In this document: positions 3,133 through 17,497 of the stretch, piece after piece
Position numbering within the stretch: position 1 is the stretch's first letter
Layout of the letters: each line of letters starts with the position of its first letter
Virus record (IMG/VR): IMGVR_UViG_2681813135_000005
Source: a virus
Lineage: Duplodnaviria > Heunggongvirae > Uroviricota > Caudoviricetes
DNA length: 17,497 nt
Direction: 5' to 3' (one strand)
Notes under the pieces: generated by a model
Seen by the model: the letters and a program-made list of their open reading frames with translations, nothing else
The model's database searches: none
Told to the model about the DNA's origin: nothing
Program-made: the position numbers and the translations under genes

Positions 3133-3735
3133 ATGAGCTATTTTCTGCGCAAAAAATGGATGGTAAATTTGTCCGGGTCAGGAAAAATTTTATGGGCGCT
3201 AAACATGAAAAAAGATTCGTATCCTTATTTGATTTGCATGACAGTTTCAGGGCTGATCTTTATTTTCCTTTTCTTCTGGTGGCGGGCAGATATCTACAGG
3301 GTCACGTTTCTTAATCAGAGTATATCCCACTATTACATTCTGTTTAGCATGGGAATAGCTTTTCTGTTATCTCTGTTTTGGGTTAAGAAGGGGATAGTAA
3401 AACAAAGCGGCTGGAAGAGTCTGTCAGCATACCTTAAGGTTTATGCAGGGATGTGCATATTTGCTGGATTTTTTCTGATTATACCCCTTACGACACTAAC
3501 TTATTTTTTGCCTGGAGAGACATCGTCTTACGTTGCACCGTATCGGTATACTTCCGGTAGTTCAAAAAGTTGTTCTGGAGCTGAGGTGGATGACCCCGAT
3601 CTACATGAGAATATTCGCATTTGCTATCCGTATGGCAATTATGAGTACGATAATATTATCTATGTTGAAAAGAAAATTAATATATTAGGTGCGGTAGTGA
3701 CATATGCACAGACCGCGCGTGATGATACTGAATGA
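3133..3735 (+). CDS. Hypothetical multi-pass membrane protein (AT-rich accessory gene in the ea/b-region position)
   Basis: 200-aa ORF on the strand opposite int/xis. Long hydrophobic segments (LICMTVSGLIFIFLFFWW, ILFSMGIAFLLSLFWV, AGMCIFAGFFLIIPLTTLTYFL) and a hydrophilic C-terminal domain. Visibly AT-rich. The true start may be an internal ATG at 3160 or 3205 (MKKDSYPYL...); no strong SD at any candidate. Confidence 0.6.
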   Translation: MSYFLRKKWMVNLSGSGKILWALNMKKDSYPYLICMTVSGLIFIFLFFWWRADIYRVTFLNQSISHYYILFSMGIAFLLSLFWVKKGIVKQSGWKSLSAYLKVYAGMCIFAGFFLIIPLTTLTYFLPGETSSYVAPYRYTSGSSKSCSGAEVDDPDLHENIRICYPYGNYEYDNIIYVEKKINILGAVVTYAQTARDDTE

Positions 3736-7428: not shown

Positions 7429-7809
7429 TCAGTCAGCCCAACCTGATTTCGAGTTTATTTGGGTTTCTGACATTGTGTATTTCTTAATCGTGTCATCGTT
7501 AAAAAGAATAGTAAGTTCTTTTTTCGTACCGTTCGTTCCATTATGGAATAATCCATAGAATGGAATAAAAGTGGTGCCATTAACTTTTACTTTTGCAAAG
7601 GCGTACTTCCAGATCTCGTTTCCACTGTCAGTATATGAAACAGCATCAGGAGAACCAAAGTAAGATTTAACCTCATTCTTGGTTGTTTTACCTTCCTGAA
7701 GTTTAGACTGGACACTAATTTCAGTTTCATTTTTGAGTTGCTGGTTGCCTGAAGAAGCACACCCAGCCAATACAGATGCCATCATGGCAGCGATTAGGAT
7801 TTTTCTCAT
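7429..7809 (-). CDS. Phage-encoded lipoprotein (SmpA/OmlA/BamE-like motif) in the rexAB position
   Basis: 126-aa ORF with signal peptide and lipobox (MRKILIAAMMASVLAGC). Segment KNEVKSYFGSPDAVSYTDSGNEIWKY resembles the BamE/SmpA-OmlA fold motif. AT-rich. Lies between the repressor gene and OL with its own terminator. Confidence 0.75.
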   Translation of the reverse strand: MRKILIAAMMASVLAGCASSGNQQLKNETEISVQSKLQEGKTTKNEVKSYFGSPDAVSYTDSGNEIWKYAFAKVKVNGTTFIPFYGLFHNGTNGTKKELTILFNDDTIKKYTMSETQINSKSGWAD

Positions 7810-9132: not shown

Positions 9133-9672
9133 ATGCAACCACTTACATACCAACAGACTAGCGGATTTATTCCGACTGCGGTGATAAATCGTTCTCAAAC
9201 AAAACAAGCTCCAGGCCACGAAAAAATCCGTGATGCCGTCCGCGCCTGGTCGGCTGTAGATAATCAGGATGTCGTTGCCGCACTCATTGTGAATGAGTAT
9301 CGGGAGCAGGGCGACGGCACCATCGATTTCCCTGATGATGTCAGCCGTGCACGCCAGAAGCTGTTCCGCTTCCTCGATAACAAATTCGATTCTGAAAAAT
9401 ACCGAAATAACGTGCGTGAACTGACCCCGGCAATTCTGGCGGTACTACCGCTGGAATATCGCGGTTACCTGGTTGAGCAGGATAGCTTCATGACTCGGTT
9501 GGCTGAAATGGAAAAGGAACTCAGTGAGGCAAAACAGGCTGTCATTCTCAACGCACCACGCCACCAGAAACTGAAGGAAATGAGTGAAGGTATTGTGTCG
9601 ATGTTTCGTGTGGACCCGGATCTGGCTGGTCCATTAATGGCGATGGTGACCACCATGCTGGGGGCAATATGA
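9133..9672 (+). CDS. YdaT-like protein in the cII position
   Basis: 179-aa ORF with SD AAGGAG. Contains LTPAILAVLPLEYRGYL, which resembles what I recall of the Rac-prophage YdaT family. Sits between cro-like and O. Confidence 0.5.
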   Translation: MQPLTYQQTSGFIPTAVINRSQTKQAPGHEKIRDAVRAWSAVDNQDVVAALIVNEYREQGDGTIDFPDDVSRARQKLFRFLDNKFDSEKYRNNVRELTPAILAVLPLEYRGYLVEQDSFMTRLAEMEKELSEAKQAVILNAPRHQKLKEMSEGIVSMFRVDPDLAGPLMAMVTTMLGAI

Positions 9673-10688: not shown

Positions 10689-11386
10689 AAAACATCGCCG
10701 CACAGATGGTTAACTTTGACCGTGAGCAGATGCGCCGGATCGCCAACAACATGCCGGAACAGTACGACGAAAAGCCGCAGGTACAACAGGTAGCGCAGAT
10801 CATCAATGGTGTGTTCAGCCAGTTACTGGCAACTTTCCCGGCGAGCCTGGCTAACCGGGACCAGAACGAACTGAACGAAATCCGCCGCCAGTGGGTTCTG
10901 GCTTTCCGGGAAAACGGGATCACCACGATGGAACAGGTTAACGCAGGAATGCGCGTAGCCCGTCGGCAGAATCGACCATTCCTGCCATCACCCGGGCAGT
11001 TTGTTGCCTGGTGCCGGGAAGAAGCATCCGTTACCGCCGGGCTGCCAAACGCCAGCGAGCTGGTTGATATGGTTTACGAGTATTGCCGGAAACGTGGCCT
11101 GTATCCAGATGCAGAGTCTTATCCGTGGAAATCAAACGCGCACTACTGGCTGGTTACCAACCTGTATCAGAACATGCGGGCCAATGCGCTGACTGATGCG
11201 GAATTACGGCGCAAGGCTGCCGATGAACTGGCCTGTATGACAGCGCGAATTAACCGTGGTGAGGCGATACCTGAACCAGTAAAACAACTTCCTGTCATGG
11301 GCGGGAGACCGCTTAATCGTGTTCAGGCTCTGGCGAAGATCGCAGAAATCAAAGCGAAGTTTGGGCTGAAAGGAGCAAGTGTATGA
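10685..11386 (+). CDS. P: Replication protein P (DnaB helicase loader)
   Basis: 233-aa ORF MKNIAAQMVNFDREQMRRIANNMPEQYDEKPQVQQVAQIINGVFSQLLATFPASLANRDQNE..., recognised as lambda P. ATGA overlap with O. Confidence 0.95.
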   Translation: MKNIAAQMVNFDREQMRRIANNMPEQYDEKPQVQQVAQIINGVFSQLLATFPASLANRDQNELNEIRRQWVLAFRENGITTMEQVNAGMRVARRQNRPFLPSPGQFVAWCREEASVTAGLPNASELVDMVYEYCRKRGLYPDAESYPWKSNAHYWLVTNLYQNMRANALTDAELRRKAADELACMTARINRGEAIPEPVKQLPVMGGRPLNRVQALAKIAEIKAKFGLKGASV

Positions 11387-11670
11387 CGGGCAAAGAGGCA
11401 ATTATTCATTACCTGGGGACTCATAAGAACTTCTGTGCGCAGGACGTTGCCGCGGTAACAGGCGCAACCGTAACCAGCATAAATCAGGCTGCGGCTAAAA
11501 TGGCGCGGTCAGGAATCCTGGTCGTTGATGGTAAGGTCTGGCGAACGGTGTATTACCGGTTCGCTACCAGAGAAGAACGGGAAGGAAAGGTGAGCACGAA
11601 TCTGATTTTTAAGGAGTGTCGTCAAAGTGCCGCGATGAAGCGGGTGTTGGCTTTATATGGAAGAGAGTAG
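11383..11670 (+). CDS. ren: Ren protein
   Basis: 95-aa ORF MTGKEAIIHYLGTHKNFCAQDVAAVTGATVTSINQAAAKMARSGILVVDGKVWRTVYYRFATREEREGK..., recognised as lambda-type Ren. ATGA overlap with P. Confidence 0.85.
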   Translation: MTGKEAIIHYLGTHKNFCAQDVAAVTGATVTSINQAAAKMARSGILVVDGKVWRTVYYRFATREEREGKVSTNLIFKECRQSAAMKRVLALYGRE

Positions 11671-11734
11671 GTATGAGCAATTATTGTTACTAATTTTAGT
11701 TTTACGACATTCGTGATAACTAAATAATTGATGT

Positions 11735-11989
11735 GTGGAACTGAATTATAAAGGGGATGATGTTTTGGGAAATAAAGAAAATATCGATTGTAAGCACACA
11801 AGAAGCTCATGCTATAAAAACAAGCAGATGAAAGATGTTATTTATATTACATTGCCTAAACTCACTGAAGAAGAAGTAGAAATTTTTAAGGGACCAATGC
11901 ATAAAGCATTGCTTGCAGGGATAAATGTTACAAAAAAGGCAGTTTCTGATGCCCTGCTAAACAAAGGGATAAAAGTTGAATTTAAATAG
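11735..11989 (+). CDS. Hypothetical small protein in the AT-rich cargo insertion (start uncertain)
   Basis: 84-aa ORF from a GTG at 11735, or 53 aa from the ATG at 11828 (MKDVIYITLPKLTEEEVEIFKG...). No clear SD for either. A 24-codon ORF with strong SD AAGGGGA starts at 11757 in another frame. Confidence 0.3.
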   Translation: MELNYKGDDVLGNKENIDCKHTRSSCYKNKQMKDVIYITLPKLTEEEVEIFKGPMHKALLAGINVTKKAVSDALLNKGIKVEFK

Positions 11990-12005
11990 AGTAATTCAGT
12001 GGCAA

Positions 12006-12033
12006 CAATAGCACTCATTTGTGAGTGCTATTG
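12006..12033. terminator. Hairpin between convergent cargo ORFs (putative bidirectional terminator)
   Basis: Perfect 12-bp inverted repeat CAATAGCACTCA-TTTG-TGAGTGCTATTG between the stop of the small plus-strand ORF (11989) and the stop of the 472-aa minus-strand ORF (12041). Followed on the plus strand by AAATTTATT. Confidence 0.5.
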
Positions 12034-12040
12034 AAATTTA

Positions 12041-13459
12041 TTAGAAAATAATGTTTGCTATATCCGAGATAGCATTTAAAGAACCTCTGTGGTCACTTCC
12101 TGTTTTAGGTAAAATATAGGAATATCGAGGGTCTTCATTATATGTTAACTTCCAGTGTTTTCCATCGCTTGACGCACTGAAACCTAAGTCCTTTAAATTT
12201 CTTTGTGTTGCGCTATCCATGCTTCTGTAACCTGTTAAAGTCCTTTTAAGTAATTGGCGGCGACTCTCGGTTTCTTTATTGTATTCATTATTGGCAATTA
12301 GGGATGATAAGATATGGTAGCTTCTACCAAATTCATTTTTATTTTTTATGGCAGTTTTTAGTGCGTCAATAATTATATTTTTGATTTCTCCATCAAAAAA
12401 ATCAGTCTCTTCACCAGCATTAAGCACAATGCTTCCTTGGGCTGAAGCTTGTGATTGAAGAGTGCGTACTCTGTGCTCTAAAGAGGAGATCTTATGCTTA
12501 AGATCTTCTATTTGGTCATCTTTCGCAACATTATCGGCTTCGTAAAGCGCCATCAGTTCGCGTGTGTATTCTCCTCTTTCTTTGAGTGAGTTAATAGAGT
12601 CTTTCGTTTTTCTGGTTTGTATCTCACTCCATCCACTATCTGAGACAGGAGCCATTGTAGTCGTAGCTCTTACAACATCATCAAATAACTCATCTTCAAA
12701 TTCTTTTGCGGTTTTCTCACCACGGCGATAAAAACTGATATTTTGACCCCGTGGCCAATAGATACCAACAGCACCAGCATAGGCATTTTTAGCATTTGTC
12801 TCATTTTTTAGCTTAATAGAAAATAGTCTATTGCTAGGCTCAATTAATACATGTGCTAATCCGCATACCTTTCTTGCAAGGCGTTCTGGGATGATATTGT
12901 GAGCATGTTCATTAAAAAAATACTTGGAGCTAACGTATATTATTGGTAGTCTGTTGTCAGTTTCACCATTTATAACTTTAGCTGCTATATTTAAATGTTC
13001 ATCAGTATCATCTAAGGAATGAGGTTCGACTGACACCTTGAAAATATCATCAAGACCACCAGAAAATTTATCAATCAATCTCATAACAACTAATGGTTTC
13101 TTAGGTTGCGGGGCTAGATAAGCTGCATCTTGGCTTACAACGCTAGATTCCACCTGAATCCACATGGTATCAGTTTTGAGATTTTTATTAATTGAAATAT
13201 CTGTTACCCATTTGTGTGGCTCAGATATTTTCGAATACCTAAAACAGCCTAAACTAGTATCTTTGTTTTTATAAGTTATTATATCAATTCTTTCATTTTT
13301 AGACTCTATGAAGTACTCCTCGCTTTTATAATCACATACTAATTGTGCTGGAATAAAAGTTGTATGTGGTGAGTCGTTTACCCAAGAAAAACATTCATTA
13401 AAGATCTCAGCTAGAGATGTGGAGTTTGAAACATAAAAACCAGTTGAGAAATATTTCAT
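12041..13459 (-). CDS. Large hypothetical protein (472 aa) of unrecognised family: cargo gene at the ren/ninB junction, candidate phage-defence or abortive-infection factor
   Basis: Uninterrupted 472-codon ORF with SD AAGGAA 5 nt before the ATG at 13459. Markedly AT-rich compared with flanking ren and ninB-like genes and transcribed against them. Central predicted coiled-coil (DDQIEDLKHKISSLEHRVRTLQSQASAQ) between an N-terminal region of about 290 aa and a C-terminal region of about 130 aa. No family recognised by eye. Confidence 0.8.
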   Translation of the reverse strand: MKYFSTGFYVSNSTSLAEIFNECFSWVNDSPHTTFIPAQLVCDYKSEEYFIESKNERIDIITYKNKDTSLGCFRYSKISEPHKWVTDISINKNLKTDTMWIQVESSVVSQDAAYLAPQPKKPLVVMRLIDKFSGGLDDIFKVSVEPHSLDDTDEHLNIAAKVINGETDNRLPIIYVSSKYFFNEHAHNIIPERLARKVCGLAHVLIEPSNRLFSIKLKNETNAKNAYAGAVGIYWPRGQNISFYRRGEKTAKEFEDELFDDVVRATTTMAPVSDSGWSEIQTRKTKDSINSLKERGEYTRELMALYEADNVAKDDQIEDLKHKISSLEHRVRTLQSQASAQGSIVLNAGEETDFFDGEIKNIIIDALKTAIKNKNEFGRSYHILSSLIANNEYNKETESRRQLLKRTLTGYRSMDSATQRNLKDLGFSASSDGKHWKLTYNEDPRYSYILPKTGSDHRGSLNAISDIANIIF

Positions 13460-13476
13460 GAAATTTCCTTATTAAA

Positions 13477-13494
13477 AATGAGATTAATCTCATT
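13477..13494 (-). promoter_or_regulatory. 18-bp perfect palindrome in the 5' region of the 472-aa gene (operator or attenuator-like hairpin)
   Basis: AATGAGATTAATCTCATT is its own reverse complement. It lies 18-35 nt upstream of the start codon; on the minus strand it is followed by TTTTT and then the SD. Confidence 0.45.
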
Positions 13495-13734
13495 GGCTAT
13501 GATAATTGTTACCCTCCTTTGGATCTAGTGTTCATTTGACATAAGAACCTATTGATTCATCATAATCAACTCGCCATAATCATGTCATCGGAGCCTGAAC
13601 AACTCCGGTGACTTCTGCGCTTTGAGGGGACTCAAAGTGCAAACGACAATCAGAACACCTTTCAACCAGTCACAGATGCAGAAATGCACCTGCGATATCT
13701 TGCATCCAACGTTTGACCTCTGCGGAGGTGAAGC

Positions 13735-14190
13735 GTGAACCTCCCACAAGATGGTATCAAATTGCATCGCGGTAACTTCACCGCTATCGGTCGGCAGATC
13801 CAGCCTTATCTGGAGGACGGCAAATGCTTTCGCATGGTGCTTAAACCGTGGCGCGAGAGACGCAGTCTTTCCCAGAATGCACTCAGCCACATGTGGTACA
13901 GCGAAATCAGTGAATACCTCATCAGCAAGGGTAAAACGTTCGCCACTCCAGCTTGGGTAAAAGATGCTCTCAAACACACATATCTCGGTTATGAAACCAA
14001 AGACCTGGTTGATGTCGTAACCGGTGATATCACCACTATCCAGTCGTTACGCCATACCTCCGATCTTGATACCGGAGAGATGTATGTCTTCCTGTGTAAG
14101 GTTGAAGCCTGGGCGGTGAATATTGGCTGCCACCTGACTATTCCGCAGAGCTGCGAGTTCCAGCTGCTCCGCGACAAGCAGGAGGCGTAA
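13735..14190 (+). CDS. ybcN: NinB/YbcN-like protein (nin-region recombination/DNA-binding family)
   Basis: 151-aa ORF from GTG at 13735 with SD GGAGG. Sequence recalled as DLP12 YbcN-like; [17 protein letters not shown] parallels lambda NinB RSLDQNRKLW. Confidence 0.7.
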
Positions 14191-15224: not shown

Positions 15225-15272
15225 ATGCGTGATATTCAGATGGTTCTTGAGCGTTGGGGAGCGTGGGCGGCT
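15225..15272 (+). CDS. Late antiterminator Q (QuuD-like), 5' fragment only, cut by the assembly gap
   Basis: ATG at 15225 encodes MRDIQMVLERWGAWAA, recalled as the N-terminus of a Q-type antiterminator, then runs into N at 15273. The position after rusA-ylcG is as in DLP12. Confidence 0.5.
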
Positions 15273-15282
15273 ANNNNNNNNN
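15273..15282. other. Assembly gap (10 N) joining prophage sequence to an unrelated chromosomal locus
   Basis: Literal run of 10 n characters. Phage genes on the left, host REP/terminator/yidB on the right. Confidence 0.95.
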
Positions 15283-15318
15283 NAATCTTGCAATGTATTG
15301 AATTTTCATGATTTTGTA

Positions 15319-15349
15319 GGCCGGATAAGGCGTTCACGCCGCATCCGGC
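15319..15349. repeat. REP (repetitive extragenic palindromic) element
   Basis: GGCCGGATAAGGCGTTCACGCCGCATCCGGC matches the enterobacterial REP consensus in reverse orientation. Confidence 0.75.
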
Positions 15350-15366
15350 AAGAAGCTATAAGAAAA

Positions 15367-15395
15367 GGGCGGAGATCATCTCCGCCCTTTTTATT
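15367..15395 (+). terminator. Intrinsic terminator upstream of yidB (likely terminator of the preceding host gene, gyrB in E. coli K-12 order)
   Basis: GGGCGGAGAT-C-ATCTCCGCCC perfect stem followed by TTTTTATTT. Confidence 0.75.
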
Positions 15396-15469
15396 TCTGC
15401 AATCCGCAATTATCATCCCGCAAATCTATACTTTTTGGGTCAACACGTAACGCTTTACAGGTGATTATC

Positions 15470-15868
15470 ATGGGGCTTTTTGATGAAGTTGTCGGTGCCT
15501 TTCTGAAAGGCGATGCGGGGAAATATCAGGCTATTTTAAGTTGGGTTGAGGAGCAGGGCGGCATTCAGGTGCTGCTGGAAAAACTGCAAAGTGGCGGCTT
15601 AGGGGCCATTCTCTCAACCTGGCTGAGTAATCAACAGGGCAATCAATCGGTTAGTGGCGAGCAACTGGAATCGGCGCTCGGCACAAATGCGGTGTCCGAT
15701 CTTGGACAAAAACTTGGCGTGGATACCAGTACAGCTTCCAGTTTACTGGCAGAACAATTGCCGAAGATTATTGATGCGCTCTCACCGCAAGGTGAAGTGT
15801 CTCCACAAGCCAATAACGATCTGCTTTCCGCAGGCATGGAACTGCTGAAAGGGAAACTCTTCCGCTAA
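15470..15868 (+). CDS. yidB: YidB (DUF937 family protein)
   Basis: 132-aa product MGLFDEVVGAFLKGDAGKYQAILSWVEEQGGIQVLLEKLQSGGLGAILSTWLSN... from the ATG at 15470, recognised as E. coli YidB. The track's GTG at 15461 adds three residues. Confidence 0.85.
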   Translation: MGLFDEVVGAFLKGDAGKYQAILSWVEEQGGIQVLLEKLQSGGLGAILSTWLSNQQGNQSVSGEQLESALGTNAVSDLGQKLGVDTSTASSLLAEQLPKIIDALSPQGEVSPQANNDLLSAGMELLKGKLFR

Positions 15869-15880
15869 GCAAATGGGGAG

Positions 15881-15910
15881 CATGCAACCCGCGTTGCATC
15901 CCCCTTTTCC
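15881..15910 (+). terminator. Putative terminator or attenuator hairpin between yidB and yidA
   Basis: ATGCAAC-CCGC-GTTGCAT hairpin followed by CCCCCTTTTCCC. Confidence 0.35.
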
Positions 15911-15982
15911 CTCGGGTGTTGTACTGATTTTTGAGCGGAATCGCGTTAGCATGGGTCAGGAACTAATCTACCTGGGGAACTC

Positions 15983-16795
15983 ATGGCTATCAAACTCATT
16001 GCTATCGATATGGATGGCACCCTTCTGCTACCCGATCACACCATTTCACCCGCCGTTAAAAATGCGATTGCCGCAGCTCGCGCCCGTGGCGTGAATGTCG
16101 TGCTAACGACGGGTCGCCCTTATGCAGGTGTTCACAATTACCTGAAAGAGCTGCATATGGAACTGCCGGGCGACTACTGCATTACTTATAACGGCGCGCT
16201 GGTACAGAAGGCCGCTGATGGTAGCACCGTGGCGCAAACCGCTCTCAGCTATGACGACTACCGTTTCCTGGAAAAACTCTCTCGCGAAGTCGGTTCTCAT
16301 TTCCACGCCCTGGACCGCACCACGCTGTACACCGCCAACCGTGATATCAGCTACTACACGGTGCATGAATCCTTCGTTGCCACAATTCCGCTGGTGTTCT
16401 GCGAAGCGGAGAAAATGGACCCCAATACCCAGTTCCTGAAAGTGATGATGATTGATGAACCCGCCATCCTCGACCAGGCTATCGCGCGTATTCCGCAGGA
16501 AGTGAAAGAGAAATATACCGTGCTGAAAAGTGCGCCGTACTTCCTCGAAATCCTCGATAAACGCGTTAACAAAGGTACGGGGGTGAAATCACTGGCCGAC
16601 GTGTTAGGTATTAAACCGGAAGAAATCATGGCGATTGGCGATCAGGAAAACGATATCGCAATGATTGAATATGCAGGCGTCGGTGTGGCGATGGATAACG
16701 CTATTCCTTCAGTGAAAGAAGTGGCGAACTTTGTCACCAAATCTAACCTTGAAGATGGCGTGGCGTTTGCTATTGAGAAGTATGTGCTGAATTAA
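15983..16795 (+). CDS. yidA: HAD-superfamily (Cof-type) sugar phosphatase YidA
   Basis: 270-aa ORF MAIKLIAIDMDGTLLLPDHTISPAVKNAIAAARARGVNVVLTTGRPYAGVHNYL... with HAD motif I DMDGTLL and a C-terminal GDQENDIAM motif. Recognised as E. coli YidA. Confidence 0.9.
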   Translation: MAIKLIAIDMDGTLLLPDHTISPAVKNAIAAARARGVNVVLTTGRPYAGVHNYLKELHMELPGDYCITYNGALVQKAADGSTVAQTALSYDDYRFLEKLSREVGSHFHALDRTTLYTANRDISYYTVHESFVATIPLVFCEAEKMDPNTQFLKVMMIDEPAILDQAIARIPQEVKEKYTVLKSAPYFLEILDKRVNKGTGVKSLADVLGIKPEEIMAIGDQENDIAMIEYAGVGVAMDNAIPSVKEVANFVTKSNLEDGVAFAIEKYVLN

Positions 16796-16840
16796 TCTGT
16801 GGGCGGGCAAACAGCATAAACGCGTTTGCCCGCTTACTGA

Positions 16841-17497
16841 TTATTGGTTTACTGCATATACAACCAGAAATTGCAGCGGTGCAGTAATGATGTCCAGCGT
16901 AACAGTCACTGGCAGTAATGCTGCGGAAACACCATCCGGAATGCCTCTGGGTGAATAGTATTCATAAAATCGCACTTTAAATGGATGGTAGAACGCCATC
17001 ACCTTTGAGTAATCCATGTTTTTATTTTTCTCATGGATTGTGCCTTTTAGGTTTTCCAGTGACCTGGTACAGTGTTGAACACCACAGGCAAAACCATAAT
17101 GCGTTGCCAGTGCCTTTTCTTCTTCGTTATTCCAGTAGTAGTAAAGCGATATTGTGCCGGTAAATTTCTTTTTCCCCGCATTTAAAACAAATCTTGCGTC
17201 ATCGGCAACCTGAATATTGTGCCGGTTAAGTGCTGGATCATTGAGCATCTTAACGATGTCATCGGCACCATCAGTGATAAGGTAATCCAGCGATTCCCCT
17301 ACAAAAACATAGCCTTTTGTTCCATTACTATCTTTTGCCTGCGATAGCCCAGTGATGGTGTCTGACTGCGATTGATACTTTCCTGAACTACCCTTTGCGG
17401 TATGGGAAACCAGAGCATACGAGATACAGCCTGAAAGCATCAGCGCCAGTGGGAATAAACCGGCAGCCTTAAAAAATCCCTTAAAATTCAACTTCAT
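16841..17497 (-). CDS. yidX: Predicted lipoprotein YidX
   Basis: 218-aa ORF starting at the last base of the window (ATG 17497..17495), [24 protein letters not shown]... with lipobox. Gene order yidB-yidA-yidX matches the E. coli chromosome. Confidence 0.8.

Follow-up and report, generated by a model that had tools for sequence, protein, structure and literature searches.

The window analysed here is a stretch of 17,497 nucleotides of a caudoviricete virus (IMG/VR record IMGVR_UViG_2681813135_000005), which comprises the early region of a lambdoid prophage. Between the prophage genes ren and ybcN (ninB-like) an AT-rich cassette was found, with a gene for a protein of 472 amino acids (aa) on the minus strand. 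On balance we regard this cassette as a moron in the variable ren/ninB slot and its product as a single-polypeptide anti-phage protein of the abortive-infection type, judged from sequence and from a predicted model. The protein combines an N-terminal module homologous to the defence protein HEC-07 with a C-terminal domain related to the toxin HicA. It belongs to a large, conserved family, most of whose examined genes lie in mobile elements or defence islands.

Relationship of the 472-aa protein to HEC-07 and HicA

An AlphaFold2 (AF2) model was built with the family alignment (pLDDT, the predicted score of the local distance difference test, 82.8). It is composed of five parts: a beta-sheet with a helix, an alpha/beta domain, a long helix, four helices (residues 358-424) and a terminal beta-beta-beta-alpha unit. 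The domains derived from it are listed in Table 1. The first has a START/Bet v 1-like fold. The second has a thioredoxin fold and carries the motifs 'G.AHV.VEP' and 'GIYWP'. The central coiled coil predicted from the model is probably an oligomerisation element. For the helical subdomain (aa 341-413) no informative structural or sequence match was obtained.

In the preprint of Payne et al. (bioRxiv 10.1101/2024.01.29.577857), HEC-07 (Hma-embedded candidate 07) is described as a single gene inside Hma systems and as one of seven candidates by which, in E. coli, the plaquing of BASEL or classic coliphages was lowered. An AdoMetDC-like domain is given as the first part of the protein and a thioredoxin-like one lacking CxxC as the second; the C-terminus is a RelE-family RNase, which resembles HP0892 and has a conserved H543 (10.1101/2024.01.29.577857). 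The tested HEC-07 protein of P. aeruginosa, WP_033943166.1, was taken from Table S2 of that study and its full 549 residues were recovered. In PADLOC, HEC-07 is represented by the models PDLC04159-04161.

The sole PADLOC match of the 472-aa protein was HEC-07 (PDLC04161, E=1e-9), spanning model positions 107-366 of 553 (47%). All 35 aligned family members matched HEC-07 models (best 1.9e-14), and 15 of them also matched PDLC04159. Alignment of the family with WP_033943166.1 by hhalign gave a probability of 95% and E-values of 2e-8 to 4e-8 over 225-227 columns with about 18% identity. Here, aa 82-321 of the window protein are placed against aa 102-351 of HEC-07, and the alignment ends at about HEC-07 residue 350. 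BLASTP of the 472-aa protein against the same sequence yielded E=2e-4 and 25% identity. Two motifs are common to the family and HEC-07, 'G.AHV' and, at the start of the coiled coil, 'EL..LYE.DN'.

The homology stops before the effector end. None of the family members has a HEC-07 alignment that passes profile position 369 of 553, and the C-terminus of the family was aligned with that of HEC-07 with an hhalign probability of 0.4%. The HEC-07 tail weakly resembles YhaV, a toxin of the RelE superfamily, in line with the publication. In general, both are single-gene proteins of about 470-550 aa. Both have a thioredoxin-like domain without CxxC and a coiled coil, preceded by a predicted alpha/beta domain at the N-terminus and followed by a C-terminal domain that resembles toxin-type RNases; their sequence homology begins at the end of the N-domain and reaches the start of the coiled coil. 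In contrast, the last ~150 residues are unrelated. HEC-07 has a RelE/YhaV-like end with a His ten residues before the C-terminus, whereas the 472-aa family has the helical subdomain and a HicA-like domain with a His 37 residues before the end. The genomic setting differs as well: HEC-07 is embedded in Hma systems, whereas the 472-aa gene is cargo of prophages, satellites or integrative and conjugative elements (ICEs). As the RelE-type effector is missing and the tail is not a canonical HicA, the protein is best described as an effector-swap variant of the HEC-07 kind.

[quoted passage not shown] In the predicted model the last 59 residues of the 472-aa protein show the order alpha-beta-beta-beta-alpha, the topology described for HicA. 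The PADLOC family 'HicA-like' was matched by six of the 35 members, always at the extreme C-terminus (best 2.6e-5). With Pfam HicA_toxin, sub-threshold matches in a single register were obtained for four of ten divergent tails (E 0.005-0.2). The tails also matched phrog_2053, with E-values from 1.9e-9 (window protein) to 1.9e-16, and the 'toxin' families phrog_353 and phrog_18430. From E. coli HicA, phrog_353 (9e-11) and, weakly, phrog_2053 (0.01) are reached as well. The latter, the closest sequence relative of the domain at aa 414-472, differs from this domain in that it consists of standalone phage proteins of 72 aa, which are uncharacterised.

A profile of 42 tails was aligned with E. coli HicA (PDB 6HPB) by hhalign with 84% probability and E=7e-6. 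The alignment score was 29.8, compared with 9.2±2.1 for 300 shuffled HicA sequences (maximum 19.9; 0 of 300 reached the score; z=9.9). Reversed HicA and the HEC-07 tail, used as controls, remained at noise level (local hhalign score of the HEC-07 tail 13.1, within the shuffle range). H435 was aligned on His23 of E. coli HicA, and G433 stands two residues before it. H435 is invariant in the 35 full-length and the 42 tail sequences, and G433 is at least 90% conserved. In addition to a predicted dsRBD-like topology, the family shares with HicA (PF07927, COG1724) a Gly-x-His motif that lies in the beta1-beta2 turn and is aligned position by position. HicA is a free protein of 50-100 aa encoded beside a HicB gene, whereas here the domain forms the last 59 residues of a 472-aa chain with no HicB gene. 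In the 13 examined contexts no HicB-like neighbour was detected, and the adjacent 53-aa gene is without a family match. When the tail alignment was used in a word-indexed search, the matches were all internal-Met fragments of full-length family genes, with no standalone HicA-like protein among them. Taken from these comparisons, the tail is related to HicA and its catalytic motif is conserved.

Every public copy of the 472-aa protein is named 'hypothetical protein', and the literature search revealed no paper citing its accessions. The full-length protein gave coiled-coil noise only against Pfam and NCBIfam, and when the PDB sequences were searched with profiles of the full family and of its C-terminal region, coiled coils and chance matches were all that appeared. 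The word-indexed search with the 472-aa protein found 75 matches. In the exhaustive profile search, 3,518 cluster representatives reached E<=1e-3 and 1,042 of them E<=1e-30; among the 150 matches listed, nearly all have 460-480 aa and are aligned end to end. At least 130 species-representative genomes contain relatives, from Alpha-, Beta- and Gammaproteobacteria as well as Planctomycetota, Verrucomicrobiota, Acidobacteriota, Gemmatimonadota and Nitrospirota, and 31 IMG/VR viral contigs carry one. The alignment of 35 sequences, with identities down to 24%, has 19 invariant columns. The ratio of nonsynonymous to synonymous substitution rates (dN/dS) is 0.13 against an 81%-identical Edwardsiella orthologue, which indicates that the gene is under purifying selection.

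The genomic contexts of 13 homologues were compared, and 11 of them are cargo sites of prophages, satellites or ICEs or are defence islands. Two of these 11 are lambdoid P/nin junctions. In a lambdoid prophage of Edwardsiella the homologue has the same P/nin position and is likewise antisense, with a small convergent gene. Other homologues were found beside the integrase of an island with a DUF927 primase (present at two or more chromosomal sites), in a P4-like satellite that also encodes an OLD-family nuclease, in a P2-like Serratia prophage between gpS and gpV, in the cargo region of a Dickeya ICE and at prophage edges in Pseudomonas, there with a HipA-like kinase and a HIRAN-like protein. 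One homologue lies in an island with Mrr, two methyltransferases, HNH, DndB/GmrSD_N and RadC, one at a locus with Schlafen-like ATPases and Fic, and a Caulobacter homologue adjoins uvrB and Xre-type regulators. No neighbour gene is conserved across the 13 contexts, which suggests that the protein works alone.

For two of the Pseudomonas prophage settings (L008 4114-7410; L033 6094-9413) it was observed that the same gene pair precedes the family gene. The pair encodes a HipA_C-like kinase (~326 aa) and a protein of 235-248 aa with a weak HIRAN match. It could be a co-travelling second defence module or form a functional trio with the family gene.

A previous reading of this DNA from sequence only had proposed a prophage-encoded anti-phage or abortive-infection factor with a central coiled coil, belonging to no family that could be named. 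The last point has to be revised, as PADLOC recognises HEC-07 over the N-terminal half. The coiled coil corresponds to a long helix at aa 277-335 of the AF2 model. The proposed role is supported by the variable junction, the HEC-07 homology, the HicA-type tail and the contexts of the relatives. No confident match to a structural or housekeeping protein was obtained, and the gene is not disrupted in a related prophage in an advanced state of decay, that of strain G4/9, where both cassette genes are intact and an IS3 element lies next door.

Proposed function and competing explanations

According to the mechanism proposed here, the START-like and thioredoxin-like domains, homologous to HEC-07, would serve as a sensing or regulatory module, and the central coiled coil would dimerise or oligomerise the protein. 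The HicA-like domain with Gly433-x-His435 would be the effector, a ribosome-independent RNase kept inactive in cis without a separate antitoxin. A phage-derived trigger would free this effector, leading to degradation of RNA and a stop of translation in the infected cell. The gene would be transcribed from signals of its own, antisense to the early-right operon, so that the 472-aa protein could be made in the lysogen. CapRel(SJ46) is a prophage-borne single chain in which a toxin domain of toxin-antitoxin type is held in check by a fused phage-sensing domain. The likeness is one of concept, by analogy, since folds and chemistry are unrelated (tRNA pyrophosphorylation versus a putative RNase). 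The systems of the P4 hotspot named in 2026 (Crouga, Bandua, Aernus, Toga, Reve, Hailong) were considered as well, and the 472-aa protein is none of them. Toga, the sole single-protein candidate with coiled-coil-like matches, was rejected, as it is an SMC-head AAA ATPase.

Several observations weigh against a defence function of this kind. The homology to HEC-07 is remote at the sequence level (18-25% identity) and the effector is not included. The mechanism of HEC-07 is itself based solely on structural similarity in the accessible part of the preprint (10.1101/2024.01.29.577857). Regarding the tail, the best HicA_toxin (PF07927) score was 17.3 bits versus a cut-off of 27, the window protein itself was unmatched, and the profile search of the PDB sequences returned no HicA. 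E. coli HicA itself scores only 30.9 bits against PF07927, and with phmmer it retrieved no other HicA from the PDB; hence, sequence searches are limited for the HicA family. No antitoxin or immunity partner was found, and therefore the means by which the protein avoids self-toxicity is conjecture. Finally, two of the 13 contexts are ordinary chromosomal neighbourhoods, and the candidate promoter is assigned by a consensus match only.

A wider interpretation, which is offered tentatively, takes the START-like, thioredoxin-like and coiled-coil parts as a reusable phage-sensing chassis for swappable RNases from antitoxin-less toxin-antitoxin families, with a tail of RelE-type in HEC-07 and of HicA-type in the 472-aa family. 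The lambdoid copy would perhaps be silenced during lytic growth. As a speculation, read-through from pR in the lytic phase might silence or neutralise the prophage's own defence gene. The arrangement would allow such silencing, with the gene placed antisense to the early-right operon, after a conserved hairpin and beside a co-inherited gene of 53 aa.

It seems unlikely that the gene is instead a cis-fused toxin-antitoxin or addiction module or a stress RNase, which stabilises the element or modulates host physiology and is not directed against phages. The HicA-type domain does come from a toxin-antitoxin family, and the gene is found on many kinds of mobile elements, with two homologues in ordinary chromosomal settings. 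But the N-terminal module has a homologue, HEC-07, whose anti-phage phenotype was measured, and in lambdoid, P2-like and P4-like elements the gene fills their specific cargo slots, with restriction-type genes alongside. Moreover, neither a labile antitoxin partner nor an autoregulatory HicB-type gene lies nearby.

Still less probable is a tail that only binds or senses RNA as a non-catalytic domain of dsRBD type, with any effector activity located elsewhere, e.g. near H203/E207 in the thioredoxin-like domain or in a separate partner. The dsRBD fold of HicA would agree with this, as would the cluster of invariant residues in the thioredoxin-like domain (G200, A202, H203, E207), where the 'G.AHV' motif is common to HEC-07. 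However, no variation was seen at the His that pairs with HicA's catalytic His, conservation of the Gly two positions earlier is at least 90%, and the same architectural position is filled by another RNase toxin fold in HEC-07.

A gene that serves the phage itself (anti-defence, host takeover or a lysis-lysogeny accessory) or a neutral hitch-hiking moron would suit the location in a temperate-phage early region between ren and nin, which have phage accessory functions, and the other cargos of the slot that are not obviously defensive (emrE; acyltransferase and lipoprotein), but is very improbable in view of the transcription against the early operon, the strong family-wide conservation (dN/dS 0.13) with an intact copy in a degraded prophage, the copies in an ICE and in non-phage defence islands, and PHROG functional matches limited to toxin-type families.

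The cassette at the ren/ybcN junction

The positions of the cassette, its genes and signals and the flanking genes are summarised in Table 1.

Table 1. Features of the cassette and its surroundings, in positions of the window (strand "." where none applies)
Feature	Position	Strand	Basis or remark
Gene of the 472-aa protein, WP_042028685.1, 'hypothetical protein'	12041..13459	-	Intact open reading frame (ORF), ATG start
N-terminal beta-sheet and helix domain, START/Bet v 1-like fold, aa 1-120	13100..13459	-	Conserved W26, S30, P31
Thioredoxin-fold domain without CxxC, aa 121-272	12644..13099	-	Invariant G200, A202, H203, E207, G229, P236
Long helix, predicted coiled coil, aa 273-340	12440..12643	-	AF2 helices 277-294, 300-335; Pfam coiled-coil noise
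Family-specific helical subdomain, aa 341-413	12221..12439	-	Invariant E351, E358, R379
HicA-like alpha-beta-beta-beta-alpha domain, aa 414-472	12044..12220	-	Near-invariant G433, invariant H435 (Gly-x-His)
AT-rich foreign cassette, ~1.9 kb, at ren/ybcN (ninB) junction	~11651..13551	.	GC drop and breakpoints of backbone homology
ren, left flank	11383..11670	+	Labelled 'Ren protein' in identical E. coli record
ybcN (NinB-like), right flank	13735..14190	+	Pfam NinB E=2e-4
Lambdoid backbone, not cargo	13552..13734	+	Putative promoter, repeat and orf33/ylcH region of phage 82 upstream of ybcN
Conserved small gene, 53 codons	11828..11989	+	Co-directional with early-right operon, convergent with 472-aa gene
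Hairpin between the convergent genes, 12-bp stem, 4-nt loop	12006..12033	.	Sequence reading; terminator-like
Shine-Dalgarno sequence AAGGA, 6 nt upstream of ATG	13466..13470	-	Read from sequence
Perfect 18-bp palindrome AATGAGATTAATCTCATT in 5' leader	13477..13494	.	Sequence reading
Best sigma-70-like match toward 472-aa gene, ATGACA-18-TATGAT, 10/12	13559..13588	-	Consensus match only

The GC content is 0.32-0.38 over ~11600-13600 and 0.50-0.56 in both flanks; for the cassette proper it amounts to 0.33-0.37, compared with 0.52. In a four-way alignment of lambdoid elements the left breakpoint was located at ~11650, within the last ren codons, with complete divergence beyond. On the right side, homology to phage 82 and many lambdoid phages picks up at 13552-13564; the counterpart in phage 82 is the orf33 (ylcH) region followed by orf151 (ybcN). 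Thus, the foreign DNA extends from ~11651 to 13551. Within 13552-13734 a ylcH-like pseudogene is annotated in identical records.

The sequence-only reading had taken 11671-13734 as inserted. Foreign DNA is indeed present in this interval, but its last ~180 bp (13552-13734) are backbone. The single cargo gene assumed there is accompanied by a second conserved gene, that of 53 codons. The other claims agree with the present data: the intact minus-strand ORF antisense to the early-right operon, the AT-richness according to the GC profile, and the ren and NinB/YbcN flanks according to the identical-record annotation and Pfam. A Shine-Dalgarno sequence of its own, a palindromic 5' element and a convergent hairpin could all be located. 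The junction had also been called a known exchange point, with ren and ninB adjacent in lambda and emrE inserted in DLP12. This was verified by comparison of the ren-ninB interval. The spacing in lambda is 73 bp, and four different cargos occupy the ren/ybcN junction across four elements. These are two small genes of no known function in strain 16F5M1D1, an acyltransferase and a lipoprotein in phage PhiR30_1, emrE-ylcJ-ybcK-ybcL-ybcM in DLP12 of K-12, and the present cassette plus two more genes in UID2309220033. The entire cassette is present in 23 of 5,426 complete E. coli genomes and absent from all sequenced phage records of the phage collection searched.

A backbone segment of ~75 bp (13552-13630) usually stands upstream of ylcH/ybcN. 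In UID2309220033, too, it directly abuts the cassette (L022 ~3230-3330), and the two further genes, encoding a P22AR C-terminal domain protein and a hypothetical protein, are inserted after it. Possibly it is a shared linker through which cargo modules undergo homologous exchange.

For the small convergent gene the mechanical ORF and the PGAP annotation begin with GTG at 11735 (84 codons, 11735-11989), but conservation was seen only from M32. Compared with the ORF of the Edwardsiella lambdoid prophage, the identity is 68% over 53 aa and dN/dS is 0.32. The gene accompanies only the lambdoid versions of the cassette (E. coli, Edwardsiella) and is absent in all other family contexts. Neither the small gene nor the 84-aa ORF gave a match in Pfam, PHROG, PADLOC or NCBIfam, and no plasmid relative was found. 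One variant is labelled 'phospholipase D-like domain-containing protein' by PGAP; this was rejected, as it has no support in any library search.

The hairpin between the two genes could, from its sequence, act as a terminator in both directions. It is kept in the Edwardsiella cassette, where two stem positions are changed on both sides with the pairing preserved. For the palindrome AATGAGATTAATCTCATT, an operator and an RNA hairpin are both conceivable. In L022, which belongs to the same cassette lineage, it is conserved, but it is missing upstream of a 77%-identical homologue in a different element. Its interpretation as a family-wide feature was rejected, since it is confined to the cassette lineage of the window. 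The candidate promoter lies at the joint of cassette and backbone, and its sequence is conserved beside the cassette in L022.

The 3 kb around the cassette are 100% identical to E. coli EFF60, whose prophage occupies the argU/DLP12 site. The same site, suggested by this identity, was ruled out for the window prophage, which adjoins ybhC (ybhC 1-1284; integrase 1419-2489) and matches prophages integrated at ybhC, e.g. that of strain JS01. Hence, the cassette is present in lambdoid prophages at no fewer than two integration sites, and its occurrence at different attachment sites indicates that it moved between lambdoid prophages. Ten N's at 15274-15283 mark a scaffold gap, before which the prophage contig stops inside Q (ATG at 15226). 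To the right (15284-17497) lies unrelated core chromosome with yidB-yidA-yidX. A prophage truncated after ylcG and fused to yidB was ruled out by this gap. The missing Q, lysis and structural genes are therefore an assembly artefact, and the window is silent on the completeness of the prophage.

Two further observations concern the immunity region. After the cro-like gene, the cII position (9133-9672, +) is occupied by a gene for a protein with a YdaT_toxin domain (Pfam E=4e-30), not a lambda-type CII. Between the kil/gam region and the repressor, an ORF of 126 aa (7429-7809, -) weakly resembles BamE, with a Pfam E-value of 1.6e-4 that falls just short of the threshold; it may encode a small lipoprotein as a moron of the immunity-left region. 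Near this position JS01 carries a different gene, of 912 bp.

Implications for the family and for lambdoid prophages

The present data document that the ren/ninB junction of lambdoid prophages is a cargo slot and can be likened to the hotspots of P2 and P4. The 472-aa protein is currently annotated as 'hypothetical', and defence classifiers recognise half of it. If it defends against phages, the defence catalogue would gain a widespread family that comprises thousands of sequence clusters, spans several phyla and is common on phages and satellites. The effector swap between HEC-07 and this family is a natural experiment on sensing by the shared START-like and thioredoxin-like module. The shared scaffold with RelE-like versus HicA-like tails would be the most useful handle on the mechanism, including the question how an RNase is silenced without an antitoxin.

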